Made by a program: the position numbers and the translations under genes. The notes beneath the pieces are model-generated. The model searched no databases. It was not told the DNA's origin and saw only the letters and a list, made by a program, of their open reading frames with translations. This document shows positions 8,553-14,512 of a DNA stretch of 39,472 bases, in pieces (position 1 is the stretch's first letter; every line of letters begins with the position of its first letter). This DNA is from a virus. Its lineage: Duplodnaviria; Heunggongvirae; Uroviricota; Caudoviricetes. The stretch is from IMG/VR virus record IMGVR_UViG_2695420732_000023; one strand, given 5' to 3'.

Positions 8553-9483
8553 ATTAACCGGCTATGTATGGGATGGTTGCGCAGCGTCAGGCATGAAATT
8601 ATCCAGCGTGGCAATTATGGCACGCCTGGCTGATTTCAGTAATGACGAAGGTGTGTGCTGGCCATCAATTGAAACCATTGCCCGCCAGATTGGCGCGGGG
8701 ATGAGTACCGTCAGAACGGCTATCGCACGGCTGGAAGCAGAAGGCTGGTTAACGCGTAAGGCGCGTCGCCAGGGTAACCGCAATGCGTCGAATGTTTATC
8801 AGCTTAACGTTGCGAAGCTTCAGGCTGCGGCTTTTTCTCAACTGTCAGATTCTGACCCGTCAAAATCTGACGCATCAAAATCTGACCCGTCAAAATTTGA
8901 TGCGTCGAAATCTGGCAAAAAAGCGGGTTTTCACCCGTCAGAATCTGGCGGGGATCCGTCAGTAAAATCAAAACATGATCCGTCAGATAAAAAAACTTCT
9001 CGTCCGGACGCTTCGCAACCGGACACGCGGAAGGCTGAACAGGATTTTTTAACTCGCCATCCTGATGCGGTTGTATTCAGCCCTAAAAAGCGCCAGTGGG
9101 GGACGCAGGATGATTTGACCTGCGCACAGTGGCTCTGGAAAAAAATCATCGCCCTGTACGAGCATGCCGCCGAATGTGACGGCGAGGTGGTTCGTCCCAA
9201 AGAACCGAACTGGACAGCCTGGGCAAACGAAATTCGCCTAATGTGTGTGCAGGATGGTCGTACTCATAAACAAATCTGCGAGATGTACAGCCGCGTCAGC
9301 CGCGATCCGTTCTGGTGCCGTAACGTGCTCAGCCCGTCGAAGCTGCGGGAAAAATGGGATGAGCTTTCCCTGCGCTTATCGCCGTCCGTCAGCACGTACA
9401 CCGAAAAACGCGAAGACCCGTACTTCAAAGCCAGTTACGACAACGTGGACTACAGCCAGATCCCGGCAGGATTCAGGGGGTGA
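8542..9483 (+). CDS. phage replication initiation protein (HTH N-terminal domain, O-like; contains iterons)
   Basis: 313-aa ORF after the immunity region; N-terminal winged-helix-like region; internal low-complexity PSKSDASKSD segment encoded by DNA direct repeats (iterons). Confidence 0.65.
   Translation: MSTKLTGYVWDGCAASGMKLSSVAIMARLADFSNDEGVCWPSIETIARQIGAGMSTVRTAIARLEAEGWLTRKARRQGNRNASNVYQLNVAKLQAAAFSQLSDSDPSKSDASKSDPSKFDASKSGKKAGFHPSESGGDPSVKSKHDPSDKKTSRPDASQPDTRKAEQDFLTRHPDAVVFSPKKRQWGTQDDLTCAQWLWKKIIALYEHAAECDGEVVRPKEPNWTAWANEIRLMCVQDGRTHKQICEMYSRVSRDPFWCRNVLSPSKLREKWDELSLRLSPSVSTYTEKREDPYFKASYDNVDYSQIPAGFRG
8845..8995. repeat. iteron-like direct repeats (CCGTCARAATCTG, at least 5 copies) followed by A-rich tract; candidate phage ori
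   Basis: copies seen at about 8847, 8868, 8887, 8934 and 8956, with looser copies near 8980; A-run at 8989-8996. Confidence 0.5.
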
Positions 9484-9485
9484 TC

Positions 9486-9974
9486 ATGAGTCTGTTAAAT
9501 GACGTTCAGAAATTCATTGAAGCCCATCCGGGGTGTACTTCCGGAGACATTGCGGATGCTTTTACAGGTTACTCACGGCAGCGCGTTCTGCAGTCAGCAA
9601 GCAAGTTACGTCAGAGTGGGCGTGTGGCTCACCGTTGTGAAGGAGATACACGCAGACATTTCCCGCGCCTGACTGAGAGAGCGCAGGAACCGGAACCACA
9701 ACCAGTTCGTGAAACCAGACCTGTGCGCAATTTCTATGTCGGCACTAACGATCCCCGTGTGATTTTGTGCCTGACCCGCCAGGCGGAAGAACTGGAGTCC
9801 AGGGGCTTATACCGTCGTGCTGCAACCGTGTGGATGGCGGCATTCCGTGAAAGCCACTCCCAGCCAGAACGAAACAATTTTCTGGCGCGTCGTGAGCGGT
9901 GCTTACGGAAAAGCAGCAAGCGCGCTGCATCGGGTGAAGAGTGGTATCTGTCAGGGAATTACGTGGGGGCTTAA
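9486..9974 (+). CDS. PerC/Pch-family transcriptional regulator-like protein
   Basis: segment AEELESRGLYRRAATVWMAAF resembles PerC-family motif by recall; ATG with GGGGG RBS; stop overlaps next start (TAATG). Confidence 0.45.
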   Translation: MSLLNDVQKFIEAHPGCTSGDIADAFTGYSRQRVLQSASKLRQSGRVAHRCEGDTRRHFPRLTERAQEPEPQPVRETRPVRNFYVGTNDPRVILCLTRQAEELESRGLYRRAATVWMAAFRESHSQPERNNFLARRERCLRKSSKRAASGEEWYLSGNYVGA

Positions 9975-10627
9975 TGAGTAATAAATATTGCCAGGCGCTG
10001 GTGGAACTGCGGAACAAACCAGCCCATGAACTGAAGGAAGTGGGCGATCAGTGGCGCACGCCGGACAACATTTTCTGGGGAATTAACACCCTGTTTGGCC
10101 CGTTTGTTCTGGATCTGTTCACTGACGGTGATAACGCCAAATGTGCCGCGTATTACACGGCGGAAGACAACGCGCTGGCGCATGACTGGTCAGAACGTCT
10201 TGCGGAGCTTAAAGGTGCTGCCTTTGGTAATCCCCCATACAGCCGCGCCAGTCAGCATGAGGGGCAATACATCACCGGCATGCGTTACATCATGAAACAT
10301 GCCAGTGCCATGCGTGATAAGGGCGGGCGCTATGTTTTCCTGATCAAAGCTGCCACCAGCGAAGTGTGGTGGCCGGAAGATGCAGATCATATTGCTTTTA
10401 TTCGCGGGCGTATTGGTTTTGAACTGCCTGTCTGGTTTATCCCGAAAGACGAGAAGCAGGTACCGACAGGAGCTTTTTTCGCTGGTGCTATTGCTGTTTT
10501 TGACAAGACCTGGAAGGGACCGGCAATCAGCTACATCGGGCGCGATGAACTTGAGGCATGTGGTGAGGCGTTTCTGGCGCAGGTTCGCCAGCAGGCGGAA
10601 AAACTGGTCAGGGAGATGGCGGCATGA
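9974..10627 (+). CDS. phage DNA N6-adenine methyltransferase (Dam-like)
   Basis: start MSNKYCQALVELRN...DQWRTPDNIF and catalytic FGNPPYS (NPPY) motif typical of phage Dam MTases. Confidence 0.8.
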   Translation: MSNKYCQALVELRNKPAHELKEVGDQWRTPDNIFWGINTLFGPFVLDLFTDGDNAKCAAYYTAEDNALAHDWSERLAELKGAAFGNPPYSRASQHEGQYITGMRYIMKHASAMRDKGGRYVFLIKAATSEVWWPEDADHIAFIRGRIGFELPVWFIPKDEKQVPTGAFFAGAIAVFDKTWKGPAISYIGRDELEACGEAFLAQVRQQAEKLVREMAA

Positions 10628-10950
10628 CGACGTTAACTCAATGCCAGCAGCAGGTGCTGGATATGCTGATTTCTTATCAGAAAGAACGTGGTTTCCCGCC
10701 AACCAATCAGGAGGTGGCAACCATGCTGGGATACCGTTCAGTGAATGCAGCGGTGGAGCATCTTCGCGCACTGGAGAAAAAAGGTGTCATCACGATAAAG
10801 CGTGGCGTGGCCCGGGGGATAACGCTTCATACCGCGGTGAAGGACGACGACAGCGAGGCGGTCGGGATTATCCGCTCACTGCTTGCTGGTGAGGAAAACG
10901 CAAGGCTGCGTGCAACCCACTGGTTACATGAGAGAGGCCTGAAAGCATGA
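10624..10950 (+). CDS. LexA N-terminal DNA-binding-domain-like protein (no peptidase domain)
   Basis: 108-aa ORF; QQQVLDMLISYQKERGFPPTNQEVATMLGYRSVNAAVEHLRALEKKGVI resembles LexA winged-helix domain; overlapping start/stop with neighbours. Confidence 0.5.
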   Translation: MTTLTQCQQQVLDMLISYQKERGFPPTNQEVATMLGYRSVNAAVEHLRALEKKGVITIKRGVARGITLHTAVKDDDSEAVGIIRSLLAGEENARLRATHWLHERGLKA

Positions 10951-11336
10951 AGCTGATCCTGCCTTTTCCGCCCAGCGTGAACACGTACTGGCGACACCCC
11001 AACAAAGGGGCGTTTGCAGGTAAGAGCCTGATAAGCGCGGCGGGGCGAAAATTCCAGAGCGCGGCGTGCGCAGCAATAGTTGAGCAGTTACGTCGTCTGC
11101 CGAAACCAATGTCGACACCTTCTGCAGTGGAGATCGTGTTGTTTCCTCCGGATAACCGGATCCGCGATCTGGACAACTATAACAAGGCGCTGTTTGACGC
11201 CCTGACCCACGCGGGTGTGTGGGAAGACGACAGTCAGGTGAAAAGAATGCTGGTTGAGTGGGGACCGGTTATCCCGAAAGGGAAGGTCGAGATCACTATC
11301 AGTAAGTTCGAGAAAACGGCGGGTGCAGCCGCCTGA
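10947..11336 (+). CDS. rusA: RusA-family Holliday junction resolvase
   Basis: 129-aa; LPFPPSVNTYWRH ... DLDNYNKALFDALTHAGVWEDDSQV matches RusA signature by recall. Confidence 0.85.
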   Translation: MKLILPFPPSVNTYWRHPNKGAFAGKSLISAAGRKFQSAACAAIVEQLRRLPKPMSTPSAVEIVLFPPDNRIRDLDNYNKALFDALTHAGVWEDDSQVKRMLVEWGPVIPKGKVEITISKFEKTAGAAA

Positions 11337-11355: not shown

Positions 11356-12153
11356 ATGAATAATCTGATGGTCATTGATGGTATTGAAGTTCGTCGTGAT
11401 GCTTATGGGCGTTACAGCCTGAACGATCTGCACAGGGCTGCCGGTTCTCTGGATAAGCATAAGCCTGCATTCTGGCTCCGCAATGAGCAAACTGAACGTT
11501 TAATAAGCGAGTTGCAGATTTGCAACTCGGTCAATATAGAGCCAGTTAACGTTATTCGTGGCGGAAATAACCAGGGGACGTATGTCTGCAAAGAACTGGT
11601 GTATGCCTATGCAATGTGGATCAGCCCGTCATTCCATCTGAAGGTGATCCGTACTTTCGACATGGTAACCAGCGCACCTGAAAAATTATCCGGACAGGCT
11701 GCTGACAAGATGCAGGCTGGCGTGATTCTGCTGGACTTTATGCGCCGGGAGTTAAATCTGTCTAACTCTTCAGTGCTTGGAGCCTGTCAGAAACTTCAGG
11801 AGGCTGTTGGCTTACCGAATCTGGCACCGCGCTATGCCATTGATGCTCCTGCTGATGCACACGATGGCTCAAGTCGCCCGACACTGTCACTGAGTGCACT
11901 GCTGAAACAGTATGGTATCCGCCTGACGGCTAATCAGGCATATCACCAGATGGTGAAGCTGGGGATCGTCGAGCAGCGCGAACGATACAGCCGTACCGCG
12001 ATTAACAACATCAAAAAATTCTGGTCGCTGACAGCGAAAGGCTGCATGTTCGGCAAGAACATCACCAGTCCCGCAAATCCGCGCGAGACGCAGCCGCACT
12101 TTTTCGAATCCCGATTCCCTGAGCTGTTAAAGCTGCTCGATACCGTTCATTGA
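11356..12153 (+). CDS. KilA-N domain protein (antirepressor-like)
   Basis: N-terminus VIDGIEVRRDAYGRYSLNDLHRAAG...KPAFWLRNEQT typical of KilA-N DNA-binding domain; AGGAG RBS. Confidence 0.6.
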   Translation: MNNLMVIDGIEVRRDAYGRYSLNDLHRAAGSLDKHKPAFWLRNEQTERLISELQICNSVNIEPVNVIRGGNNQGTYVCKELVYAYAMWISPSFHLKVIRTFDMVTSAPEKLSGQAADKMQAGVILLDFMRRELNLSNSSVLGACQKLQEAVGLPNLAPRYAIDAPADAHDGSSRPTLSLSALLKQYGIRLTANQAYHQMVKLGIVEQRERYSRTAINNIKKFWSLTAKGCMFGKNITSPANPRETQPHFFESRFPELLKLLDTVH

Positions 12154-12154
12154 G

Positions 12155-13150
12155 GTGACCGTGAGAGCACTACTGACCCCTGAAATTGCCCCGCGTATGG
12201 GGATCGTATTGTTCAGACCAGGTTCAGAGCTGATGCCCCTGTTTATGCAGGGGCGTGTCCTGCTGGAGCCTGAGCCGGAACGTTATTCATCTTTTGCCAG
12301 TGGTGCCGTTCCGGCGGCATCACAACCGCTGGCGGATGATCCTGCCGTTCGGGCCGTGTTCCGCAATGAGGCAGTGATCCGTCGTGCTGGTGGAGTGGAA
12401 TGTCTTGAAAGCTGGTTACTTCGTGAAAAAGGCTGCCAATGGCCTCATTCCGACTGGCACAGCGAGAACATGACCACAATGCGACACGCGCCGGGCGCAA
12501 TCCGTCTGTGCTGGCACTGCGATAACCAGCTGCGCGATCAGTTCACGGAACGGCTGGAATCAATGGCAACGGATAACTGTGCCCGCTGGGTGTTATCTGT
12601 TGTGCGCCGTGATCTCGGTTTTGATGATAGTCACGTTGTAACAATGCCGGAACTGTGCTGGTGGCTGGTTCGTAATGACCTGGCTGATGCCTTACCGGAA
12701 AGTGCAGCCCGTAAGGCACTGAGATTACCTAAGCCTGTTGTGCCGTCTGTCACCCGGGAGAGTGACCTTGTTCCTTCGGTTCCTGCCACCAGCATTATCC
12801 AGGATAAAGCGAAAAAGGTGCTGGCGCTGAAAGTGGATCCAGAGTCGCCGGAGTCTTTTATGTTACGCCCAAAATGTCGCCGCTGGGTTAATGAAAAGTA
12901 CACGCGCTGGGTTAAGACACAGCCGTGTGCATGTTGTGGAAAGCCTGCTGATGATCCCCACCACCTGATAGGCCACGGTCAGGGTGGAATGGGTACAAAA
13001 GCGCATGACCTCTTTGTGTTGCCTTTGTGCAGAAAGCATCACGACGAGCTGCATGCGGATACCGTGGCATTTGAAGAGAAGTATGGCTCCCAGCTGGAGC
13101 TGATATTTCGTTTTATCGATCGTGCGCTGGAAATAGGCGTGCTGGCCTGA
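12155..13150 (+). CDS. DUF968-like protein with C-terminal Cys/His (HNH-like) motif
   Basis: 331-aa ORF; C-terminal CACCGKPADDPHHLIGHG...CRKHHDELH; position upstream of Q as for Qin ydfU-type genes; start codon uncertain (GTG at 12155). Confidence 0.5.
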   Translation: MTVRALLTPEIAPRMGIVLFRPGSELMPLFMQGRVLLEPEPERYSSFASGAVPAASQPLADDPAVRAVFRNEAVIRRAGGVECLESWLLREKGCQWPHSDWHSENMTTMRHAPGAIRLCWHCDNQLRDQFTERLESMATDNCARWVLSVVRRDLGFDDSHVVTMPELCWWLVRNDLADALPESAARKALRLPKPVVPSVTRESDLVPSVPATSIIQDKAKKVLALKVDPESPESFMLRPKCRRWVNEKYTRWVKTQPCACCGKPADDPHHLIGHGQGGMGTKAHDLFVLPLCRKHHDELHADTVAFEEKYGSQLELIFRFIDRALEIGVLA

Positions 13151-13167
13151 TTTTGTGGAGAAATTTG

Positions 13168-13533
13168 ATGCGTGATATTCAGATCATCCTTGAACGTTGG
13201 GGGGCATGGGCAGCTAGTGATAGCTCAGGAGTGGACTATTCGCCTATAGCTGCTGGGTTTAAGGGACTTCTTCCCTATACCAGTAAGGCACGCCAAGCTT
13301 GTTCAGATAATGATGCGCTAATTATTGAAAGTTGCTTGGAGCAACTAAAAAAAAGAAAACCTTATGAGCATTCTCTACTGGTTGCGCATTATTTGTACGG
13401 GTTTTCAAAGCGGAAGATTGCCAAAGTACAAGGAAAGGATGAGAAATTAATCCGTATAGAAATATTGTTAGCAGAGGGATTCATTGATGGTTGCCTTTCT
13501 ACTCTCGATATTCATTTAGATATGGAGTTATAA
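13168..13533 (+). CDS. late-gene antiterminator Q (QuuD-like small Q family)
   Basis: MRDIQIILERWGAWAA...IAAGFKGLL...LDIHLDMEL resembles DLP12 QuuD by recall; GGAG RBS 7 nt upstream of ATG at 13168; position before lysis genes. Confidence 0.7.
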   Translation: MRDIQIILERWGAWAASDSSGVDYSPIAAGFKGLLPYTSKARQACSDNDALIIESCLEQLKKRKPYEHSLLVAHYLYGFSKRKIAKVQGKDEKLIRIEILLAEGFIDGCLSTLDIHLDMEL

Positions 13534-13572: not shown

Positions 13573-14388
13573 TTATTTCTTTTTTTTATTACTTTCAGAT
13601 AATCGTCGGTTTAATGTGTATTTTATTTGGTTCCTAATCATTTTTTCAGGAATGTCATATTTGTCTAAGAATGATATTATTTCATCCTCGTCAAGCAATC
13701 CATTCTTTATAATTTCATCTATCTGTTTTTGTAGATACCAAACATCCTTCTGTTCTACAGGAGTTAAATTCATATGGCTATTTATGGAGTTGATAGTAGC
13801 ATCACGTTCAAGAACTCTAATCCTTTGATTTAATGAACGAGTGTTTTGTAATATTTCAGATAAAAGATCTTGTTCAGTACGTGGTTTTACTTCTTCAGTT
13901 GGAGGGTATTGATCTAAAGCTCGTTTAAAATTTTTTTCAAATTGCTCCCAGTATGTATTAAAAACTTGCTTTAGAATACGGTCATCTAAAGATTTATCGA
14001 CAAGACAATTGTTTATTGTCCTTACTAATTCCCAAACACTCTCTTTATTTGGCGTTGTGTGATTGAATTGAGCAAGTGGATCTTTTAAATCTTCTGGTTT
14101 TAAGTCAATCAAGAATGTACAAACTTTATTTGTTGAAAGTCCTTTTGCTAGTGCTCCTGTTTCAAACAAAATCCATGGTTTATTTTTATTTTCTTGTGTC
14201 AAACATACAATGCCGACAGATACATCTTTTAATTTATCATTAATTTCAGAGAACCATATAGCGCCACGATCAATATCTCTGGTTGAAATCCATGGCTGCG
14301 AAGCTTGGATAACACACTTCAGCCAGTCGCTAATAAGTTCTGCAACAGCTTGACTTCTTTGCCCAGACCAACTTATGAACACTTTCAT
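13573..14388 (-). CDS. TIR-like domain protein (N-terminal TIR-like fold, C-terminal domain of unknown function); candidate antiphage defence moron
   Basis: start MKVFISWSGQRSQAVAELISDWL (FISWSG motif typical of bacterial TIR-like domains), later WILFETGAL with candidate catalytic Glu; visibly AT-rich versus flanks; opposite strand to all neighbouring late genes; GGAG RBS. Confidence 0.65.
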   Translation of the reverse strand: MKVFISWSGQRSQAVAELISDWLKCVIQASQPWISTRDIDRGAIWFSEINDKLKDVSVGIVCLTQENKNKPWILFETGALAKGLSTNKVCTFLIDLKPEDLKDPLAQFNHTTPNKESVWELVRTINNCLVDKSLDDRILKQVFNTYWEQFEKNFKRALDQYPPTEEVKPRTEQDLLSEILQNTRSLNQRIRVLERDATINSINSHMNLTPVEQKDVWYLQKQIDEIIKNGLLDEDEIISFLDKYDIPEKMIRNQIKYTLNRRLSESNKKKK

Positions 14389-14512
14389 TATGTACTCCAT
14401 GTAATCACTCAAAAGGGACTGAAATTTACATTAAAAATTAAATAAAATCACTCACGCGGTCCGCAGAAACCATTGTAATCTGTTATGAGTGGTTACTTCG
14501 CCACACAACTTA

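Follow-up and report, generated by a model that had tools for sequence, protein, structure and literature searches.

In the record of bacteriophage lambda, iterons 1–4 of the replication origin (ori-lambda) lie at codons ~117–145 of the initiator gene O, followed by the AT-rich region, and the number of iterons is known to vary among relatives of this origin, four as against six in Stx phages (PMC7466680). A further group, the O-only lambdoid phages, carries an O homologue alone (34 of 314, for example LLS), and a 2025 Genome Research paper calls their replication 'not yet understood' (PMC12315714). The DNA described here, called the window throughout, is a stretch of 39,472 nucleotides (IMG/VR virus record IMGVR_UViG_2695420732_000023) that contains a lambda-O-like initiator gene with a repeat array inside its coding sequence. 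We put at about 80% the probability that positions 8836–9000, within the linker-coding part of this gene, are the core of a prophage replication origin of the lambda type. A preliminary description of the window had already proposed a lambda-like origin inside the initiator gene, and this proposal is supported by the homology to lambda O, the alignment of the iterons, their siting in a linker, their synonymous conservation and the swapping of the region as a cassette. That a lambdoid prophage should have an origin is to be expected, and the lambda-type design is well known; the present one is a distinct variant by its other DNA-binding domain, its tight array with a period of 15 base pairs (bp), its conserved GATC pair and, above all, its loader-less design with a DnaT-type tail.

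From the motif searches, the true repeat unit is seen to be an 11-bp near-palindrome, TCARAATYTGA, which occurs in six copies within 8845–8948. Units 1–5 follow one another at a strict 15-bp period, and unit 6 is set off by 33 bp, as listed here.

8845–8915, strand not applicable: iterons 1–5, in tandem, with an 11-bp core (tandem-repeat and motif searches)
8845: iteron 1, TCAGATTCTGA
8860: iteron 2, TCAAAATCTGA
8875: iteron 3, TCAAAATCTGA
8890: iteron 4, TCAAAATTTGA
8905: iteron 5, TCGAAATCTGG
8938–8948: iteron 6, the outlier, TCAGAATCTGG, within a near-invariant DNA block

The preliminary description had reported at least five direct copies of CCGTCA(A/G)AATCTG in this place. The array is indeed there, but the string itself proved too strict, as a search of the window returned only two exact matches (at 8857 and 8935) and three matches when one mismatch was allowed. 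With up to two mismatches there are six on the plus strand (at 8842, 8857, 8872, 8887, 8902 and 8935), and none outside 8842–8951 in all 39,472 bases. Tandem Repeats Finder gave a period of 15 with 4.3 copies at 8851–8914, which is the sole tandem array scoring at least 50 across the 39-kb window. When TCARAATYTGA was searched with up to one mismatch, nine of the ten sites in the window fell inside the 104 bp of 8845–8948; shuffled windows gave 3.4 ± 1.7 matches, and 0 of 100 shuffles reached ten. The repeat array is far beyond chance. The low-complexity segment of PSKSD type reported earlier is encoded by these repeats as well, with the peptide SDSD-PSKSD-ASKSD-PSKFD-ASKSG...PSESGG. A 30-bp super-period, based on the alternating Pro/Ala units in the window, was considered and dropped, since the homologues do not keep the alternation. 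The TCAAAA at the centre of the unit resembles the lambda iteron, a likeness that we treat as possibly coincidental. A GC-rich hairpin with a T run on the minus strand (8937–8924), terminator-like in form, lies in the 33 bp that separate iteron 5 from iteron 6, and a promoter scan found no internal promoter in the initiator gene.

The initiator matches phrog_391, 'replication initiation O-like', with an expectation (E) value of 2.9e-135, and its coding sequence is organised in the following way.

8542–9483, plus strand: initiator gene, lambda-O-like, 313 residues, holding the putative origin (open reading frame (ORF), phrog_391, BLASTP)
8542–8835, plus strand: N-terminal winged-helix domain, residues 1–98, presumed reader of the iterons (HTH_36, AlphaFold2, Foldseek)
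9040–9375, plus strand: helical C-terminal domain, residues 167–278, lambda O homologue (tblastn, BLASTP, AlphaFold2)

The N-terminal domain is matched by Pfam HTH_36 at residues 23–70 (E=4e-11); an AlphaFold2 model built from a 40-sequence alignment has helices and a beta wing at residues 1–102, that is, a winged helix, and Foldseek finds this domain to be akin to MarR/ArsR-type winged-helix DNA binders. In the same model residues 167–280 form a helical domain, with a predicted local distance difference test (pLDDT) score of 86–95 over residues 167–278, the C-terminal tail is of low confidence, and residues 102–166 are a disordered linker (pLDDT 27–36) that coincides with the repeat and AT-rich segment (residues 99–153). 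The repeats and the AT-rich stretch are therefore sited where the protein imposes the least constraint. Against lambda O, BLASTP gives 31% identity over residues 70–277 (E=3e-26) and tblastn 35.6% identity over residues 131–277. The window protein thus fits the lambda O family by its C-terminal domain and not by its N-terminal one, which in the Pfam search is not Phage_rep_O (PF04492), the family that lambda O itself matches at E=5.7e-36.

Other relatives of the initiator were searched for as well. The fold search with the C-terminal domain had no informative match, its matches being dominated by the N-terminal winged helix; the PDB sequence search returned only MarR-type winged-helix proteins for the whole protein and nothing for the tail alone; and NCBIfam gave no specific family for the initiator. 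A Rep_3-type plasmid initiator (RepA, pi, RepE) was ruled out, as the protein has no Pfam match to Rep_3 and only a single winged-helix domain, where the Rep_3 fold has two. RP-C produced a weak sub-threshold match (17 bits). Of the DnaD-like phage replisome organisers, in which a DnaD_N winged helix is joined to a C-terminal domain of DnaD/DnaB_2 type, DnaD_N scored 19.1 bits, which is below its 27-bit cut-off, and phrog_2514, 'DnaD-like helicase loader', was matched at E=1.9e-29.

Alignment to other lambdoid origins upheld the likeness that had been proposed. In the BLASTP alignment the lambda iterons fall on window residues ~105–140, and the iterons together with the AT-rich region on residues ~105–153, so that the repeats and the AT-rich stretch of the window land on lambda iterons 1–4 and the lambda AT-rich region. 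Both phages have the same order of DNA-binding domain, iterons, AT-rich stretch and C-terminal domain. In both, a dyad-symmetric iteron array has an AT-rich stretch to its right, and each array can be aligned with the other position by position; the linker between the two domains holds the repeats, at the place that corresponds to the lambda iterons; the iteron sequence co-segregates with the DNA-binding domain at the N-terminus; and copy number varies among relatives, in the window family as among those of lambda. The differences are also plain. The N-terminal domain is HTH_36 in the window and Phage_rep_O in lambda; the AT-rich stretch of the window is flanked by a conserved pair of GATC sites; and the window initiator, which no P gene follows, bears a DnaT-type tail in place of the lambda-type TDWIYGVDL.

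To follow the repeats beyond the window, we have compared 80 genome loci with the same N-terminal domain (56–100% identity), drawn from many Enterobacterales genera, to which several phage loci were added; about 70–78 loci were usable, depending on the test. The repeats are kept in all compared loci, mostly with 5–9 units per locus, and the family consensus of the unit, GAC-nCn-TCA-aAA-TCT-GAc, is conserved at its third-codon bases. Of 427 first serines in the units, 351 are encoded by TCA, and where proline stands in their place the codon is mostly CCA (47 of 52). For the unit lysine, AAA occurs 265 times as against two AAG, and the unit glutamate is GAA in 151 and GAG in 8 cases. The N-terminal domain of these genes behaves as normal coding DNA does: as many as six codons occur in its conserved serine columns, and its Lys4 is encoded by AAA in 58 loci and by AAG in 20. 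When all serine codons are pooled, TCA makes up 51% and TCT 35% of those in the linker, as against 12% and 8% in the N-terminal domain. The mean information at codon positions 1, 2 and 3 is 1.53, 1.74 and 0.66 bits in the N-terminal domain and 1.49, 1.43 and 1.38 bits in the linker block, where several four- or six-fold degenerate codons, such as Val GTA and Ser TCA, are invariant. The block around unit 6, TTT SAC CCG YCA GAA TCT GG, is near-invariant DNA across genera. In divergent members (57–63% identity) the encoded peptides differ, for example EGSNIEGSNIGG and PKSGRSESEPSESGH, while the 15-bp period and a YCARAWWYTGR core are kept. The linker DNA is conserved beyond what the protein requires.

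This conservation bears directly on the plainest explanation of the array, which the preliminary description had also raised, namely that the tandem repeat is simply a matter of coding: slippage would have lengthened a flexible, low-complexity linker rich in serine, and the DNA would have no role in cis. The segment does encode a disordered linker, and the window-type alleles (proteins of 282–337 residues) differ by whole in-frame 15-bp units, as slippage would yield. However, synonymous sites outdo many non-synonymous ones in conservation, as seen in the preference for AAA over AAG and in the CA ending that is kept whether serine or proline is encoded; third codon positions carry twice the information that they do in the neighbouring domain; the DNA core and its period persist where the peptides diverge; and the invariant single-copy block and the GATC sites are beyond the reach of concerted evolution. 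Since concerted evolution homogenises repeats within a lineage and does not produce the same synonymous bases across genera, we have rejected the plain coding-repeat explanation, which now appears very improbable indeed. Conservation of third-codon positions above the need of the protein, inside a disordered linker, also offers a general way to spot origins hidden in genes.

Directly after the array comes the AT-rich stretch, which contains short repeats of its own.

8957–9000, strand not applicable: AT-rich stretch, presumed DNA-unwinding element (low GC content, low stability, alignment to the lambda AT-rich region)
8953–8967: GATC-led AT-rich direct repeat 1, GATCCGTCAGTAAAA, with GATC at 8953–8956
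8977–8991: GATC-led AT-rich direct repeat 2, GATCCGTCAGATAAA, with GATC at 8977–8980

An A-rich tract had been noted earlier at 8989–8996; the run of A is present inside the AT-rich stretch but ends one base sooner, as A7 at 8989–8995. The GC content of 0.30 at 8960–8999 is the lowest 40-nucleotide value in 8000–10000, and the least stable 40-mer of the initiator gene starts at 8959–8962. The same profile is found over 71 loci, where the GC content is 0.60 just before the first GATC, 0.32–0.40 (standard deviation 0.03) for ~45 nucleotides, and then 0.62. The Asp-Pro codons at the GATC sites read GATCC in 71 of 71 loci at the first site and in 62 of 69 at the second, whereas at Asp-Pro pairs elsewhere in the same genes the aspartate codon is GAC in 41 cases and GAT in 10. 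From this codon bias, the two Dam sites are therefore conserved at a synonymous position. Two relatives have the AT-rich, GATC-led unit in repeated form (24 bp × 2.5 in L078 and 12 bp × 2.8 in L005).

A similar arrangement is familiar from the plasmid P1 oriR and from E. coli oriC with its 13-mers, where initiator-binding repeats stand beside an AT-rich unwinding region made of short GATC-led repeats. The window differs from the Dam-dependent iteron origins in that it has no DnaA box of zero mismatch near the array (two one-mismatch matches only, at 8832 and 9134), and in that its initiator is not of the Rep_3 type. A methyltransferase gene of the phage lies 0.5 kb downstream.

9941–10627, plus strand: Dam-type N6-adenine methyltransferase gene (Pfam Dam, E=1e-45)

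Judged by its sequence, this gene suggests a possible partner in trans for the GATC pair, and hence that initiation may be methylation-sensitive.

The repeats also travel with the DNA-binding domain. Phage mEp460 matches the window at 91% identity as far as the start codon and again, at 97%, from 8987 on. What lies within 8548–8986 (the N-terminal domain with the repeats and the larger part of the AT-rich stretch) is swapped as one block; the block of mEp460 has repeats of its own (23 bp × 5.4). In phage phiNP it is the other part that changes, 8543–9020 being retained together with a different C-terminal domain (Pfam Phg_2220_C). Where the domain type is another, the initiator gene has other repeats at the equivalent place, as in cdtI (21 bp × 7.7), GF-2 (24 bp × 2.8) and Stx2a_1447 (× 2.7), and lambda has its four iterons there. 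On these sequence comparisons, the co-inheritance of repeats with the DNA-binding domain matches the classical lambdoid origin-specificity module.

If this locus operates in the manner of lambda, dimers of the N-terminal winged helix would bind the inverted pentamers (TCARA / TYTGA) of the five 15-bp-spaced units and of the outlier. The resulting nucleoprotein complex would destabilise the adjoining AT-rich stretch at 8957–9000, bracketed by its two GATC sites, and the C-terminal part of the initiator, most likely through its DnaT-like IPxGFRG tail, would bring the host helicase-loading machinery to the opened DNA. We have drawn this mechanism by analogy with the lambda O-some; binding and unwinding are inferred in it, as are any effect of methylation and the protein that the tail would contact.

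Several points weigh against an origin at this place. It is common for an allele to have just one or two units, and one such form, of 288 residues, is present on 128 contigs. The 11-bp cores of the window, at a period of 15 bp, are packed more tightly than the 18-bp iterons of lambda, which are ~20–24 bp apart, and half-site spacings of both 6 and 9 bp leave the binding register not fixed. The AT-rich stretch is short (~45 bp) and is not the most unstable place in the window (97.6th percentile). The SfIV genome paper mentions no origin, and the O-only type is without experimental study, as stated in the 2025 paper (PMC12315714). Finally, the palindromic units have a marked hairpin potential, with a DNA single-strand fold of −28.4 kcal/mol for 8836–9000, compared with −13.7 ± 2.5 kcal/mol for shuffles (z=−5.9), so that a structural role and a binding-site role are inseparable by sequence alone.

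This fold would also suit an explanation in which the DNA structure itself matters, the palindromes being unwound or extruded as hairpins or cruciforms that serve as an entry point for PriA, like a primosome-assembly site, or as a site for a protein other than the initiator. PriA recognises hairpin and fork structures (PMC5778457), and the initiator does have a DnaT-like tail. Yet it is the core sequence, not just its pairing potential, that is conserved across genera; the hairpin at 8924–8937 is not conserved in the homologues inspected; and Rfam gave nothing above threshold. The scan of 8000–10000 returned only a miRNA hairpin (30.7 bits against a 97-bit threshold), a match due to the palindromic units, and an RNA element was therefore rejected. 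We regard a role of the DNA structure in place of initiator binding as quite unlikely.

In plasmids, control roles of iterons are established. The repeats of the window might likewise be initiator-binding sites for autoregulation or copy control (by titration, handcuffing or a roadblock in the transcript of the initiator itself), with opening and helicase loading occurring elsewhere in the phage. That alleles with one or two units are so common, as if the full array were perhaps dispensable, would agree with such a role, as would an AT-rich stretch that is short and not the least stable spot of the window. Against it, this stretch and its two GATC sites are conserved, stand directly after the array in the order of ori-lambda and align with it, and the window has no second repeat array, the core sites elsewhere being not above chance. 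A purely regulatory array is thus unlikely, and an origin of the lambda type remains the preferred explanation. As for the short alleles (P0015–P0017, P0029, P0031, P0063 and P0068; 282–296 residues), most of their 15-bp units have been lost in frame, but never the last one or the GATC/AT-rich block; these alleles represent either minimal origins, in which few units suffice, or decaying prophages.

How the host replication machinery would reach such an origin is a separate matter, in which the locus departs most from lambda. No match to DnaB, DnaC, lambda P or DnaT was found among the ORFs of the window, and the complete genome of SfII, a phage 98% identical, has no helicase, loader, primase or recombination module; the earlier statement that no helicase or helicase-loader gene follows the initiator is thus correct. 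In a phage that lacks P, DnaC and DnaB genes, it must be the C-terminal part of the initiator that recruits the host machinery, as the preliminary description had also suggested, and its sequence narrows this part, probably, to the last residues.

9409–9480, plus strand: C-terminal tail module, residues 290–313, ...EDPYFKASYDNVDYSQIPAGFRG (DnaT C-terminus match, shared DNA)

The window module resembles the O-only modules (PMC12315714) in having a single O homologue and neither helicase nor loader, and, for the SfII type, in having no recombination module and many Chi sites; the searched portion of that paper describes no origin or iterons and gives no recruitment mechanism for O-only modules.

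The initiator ends with ...DYSQIPAGFRG and E. coli DnaT with ...PDSQIPPGFRG, an agreement of eight in nine residues at the extreme C-terminus of both proteins, which differ in all else. When the initiator was aligned with DnaT by hhalign, only the last 16 columns were covered (E=7.6e-4), BLASTP and hhalign aligned the terminal 9–16 residues only, and the Pfam search gave no match to DnaT (PF17948), the initiator having neither the N-terminal domain nor the three-helix C-terminal domain of that protein. The initiator is therefore not a DnaT homologue, and both membership of the DnaT family and a DnaT-related C-terminal domain were rejected. The label 'primosomal protein' that RefSeq phage records give to the initiator is misleading for the same reason, because nothing beyond the tail is shared with DnaT.

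In addition to this match, the tail is found in unrelated settings. From 9408 on, the DNA is 96–98% identical to the initiator genes of cdtI and Stx2a_1447, which are otherwise unrelated in their N- and C-terminal domains and are likewise without a loader gene. The ending [IV]PxGFR[GS] occurs in 49 initiators of related loci, on at least three types of C-terminal domain. The three ORFs that come next include a P, DnaC or DnaB homologue in none of these 49 loci, compared with 7 of the 29 loci with other tails; the association between tail and loader runs one way only, since the remaining 22 loci, with a third tail type (WKE..QR..), are also loader-free. Conservation over 105 DnaT ortholog clusters is 0.95 for the IPxGFRG end, as compared with 0.76 for the 20 residues before it. 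A variant end of DnaT, PDKxIPxGFRGAK, is mirrored by the initiator tails GPDKAIPAGFRGAK in two Enterobacter prophages. These sequence data point to the tail as an exchangeable module with a function.

The observations on the tail concern, besides 9409–9480 of the window, L007 (5979–6518, minus strand), L091, L092, L030 and L035. Several of the initiators that precede a P gene (L045, L077, L079, L085, L086, GF-2 and lambda) have Trp-containing tails, such as TDWIYGVDL and DWNSTGWLREEVLQ. Those of L052 and L075 precede a DnaC-like gene, and that of L052 ends in ...GGTDDDFI, which we take to resemble the C-terminal peptide of SSB. Tails in general may be exchangeable adaptor peptides.

A tentative explanation, which we would not yet favour, is that O-only initiators need no loader because IPxGFRG copies the C-terminus of the host DnaT; the initiator could then be a sequence-specific stand-in for DnaT, linking the origin to DnaB–DnaC delivery or to PriA. 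If this is true, IPxGFRG would be the element by which DnaT itself recruits its partner. The motif string of the tail was not found in the literature searched, and reviews state the DnaT route to DnaB–DnaC recruitment as unknown and give no partner for the DnaT tail. For a replicon that is very common yet unstudied, the tail provides a concrete peptide with which the questions of O-only replication and of DnaT recruitment can both be approached.

The abundance of this replicon is seen from its distribution. The region has ~98% identity with the Shigella phages SfII and SfIV, as well as with several E. coli phage isolates, and 100% with a prophage in E. coli O103 strain ML775. Of 5426 complete E. 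coli genomes, 1576 have the initiator gene at 80% coverage or more, and 2725 have parts of it; in the CPS-53 remnant of K-12, query bases 234–942 (window 8775–9483) are found, the repeat region included. In E. coli genomes the RefSeq name of the protein is only 'helix-turn-helix domain-containing protein'.

Judged by the predicted products, the surroundings of the initiator are those of the early-right operon of a lambdoid prophage, with the following genes besides the methyltransferase gene given above.

6598–7290, minus strand: CI-type repressor
7388–7648, plus strand: cro-like gene
7641–8201, plus strand: CII/CP76-type regulator
upstream of 8542, plus strand: small ORFs
9480–9974, plus strand: PerC-like regulator
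10624–10950, plus strand: LexA-type DNA-binding protein
10947–11336, plus strand: RusA
11356–12153, plus strand: KilA-N protein
12155–13150, plus strand: DUF968 protein
13153–13533, plus strand: antiterminator Q

Just 5′ of the initiator, two ORFs overlap in different frames on the plus strand (8194–8532 and 8373–8552), and public annotations disagree over which of the overlapping ORFs is the gene. An upstream ORF of 112 residues belongs to phrog_1170 and is annotated in SfII, and one of 59 residues is DUF4222 (Pfam E=8.6e-19) and is PGAP-annotated in E. coli. Chi sites (GCTGGTGG) number 12 in the 39.5-kb window, 10 of them on the plus strand. Many Chi sites, together with the lack of a recombination module in SfII, fit the lambdoid class 'no Rec module, many Chi sites' described in PMC12315714. 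Directly after Q, at 13573–14412 on the minus strand, there is a gene for a TIR-domain protein of 279 residues (Pfam TIR_2, E=4e-7), a place that is typical for a phage-carried defence or accessory gene.

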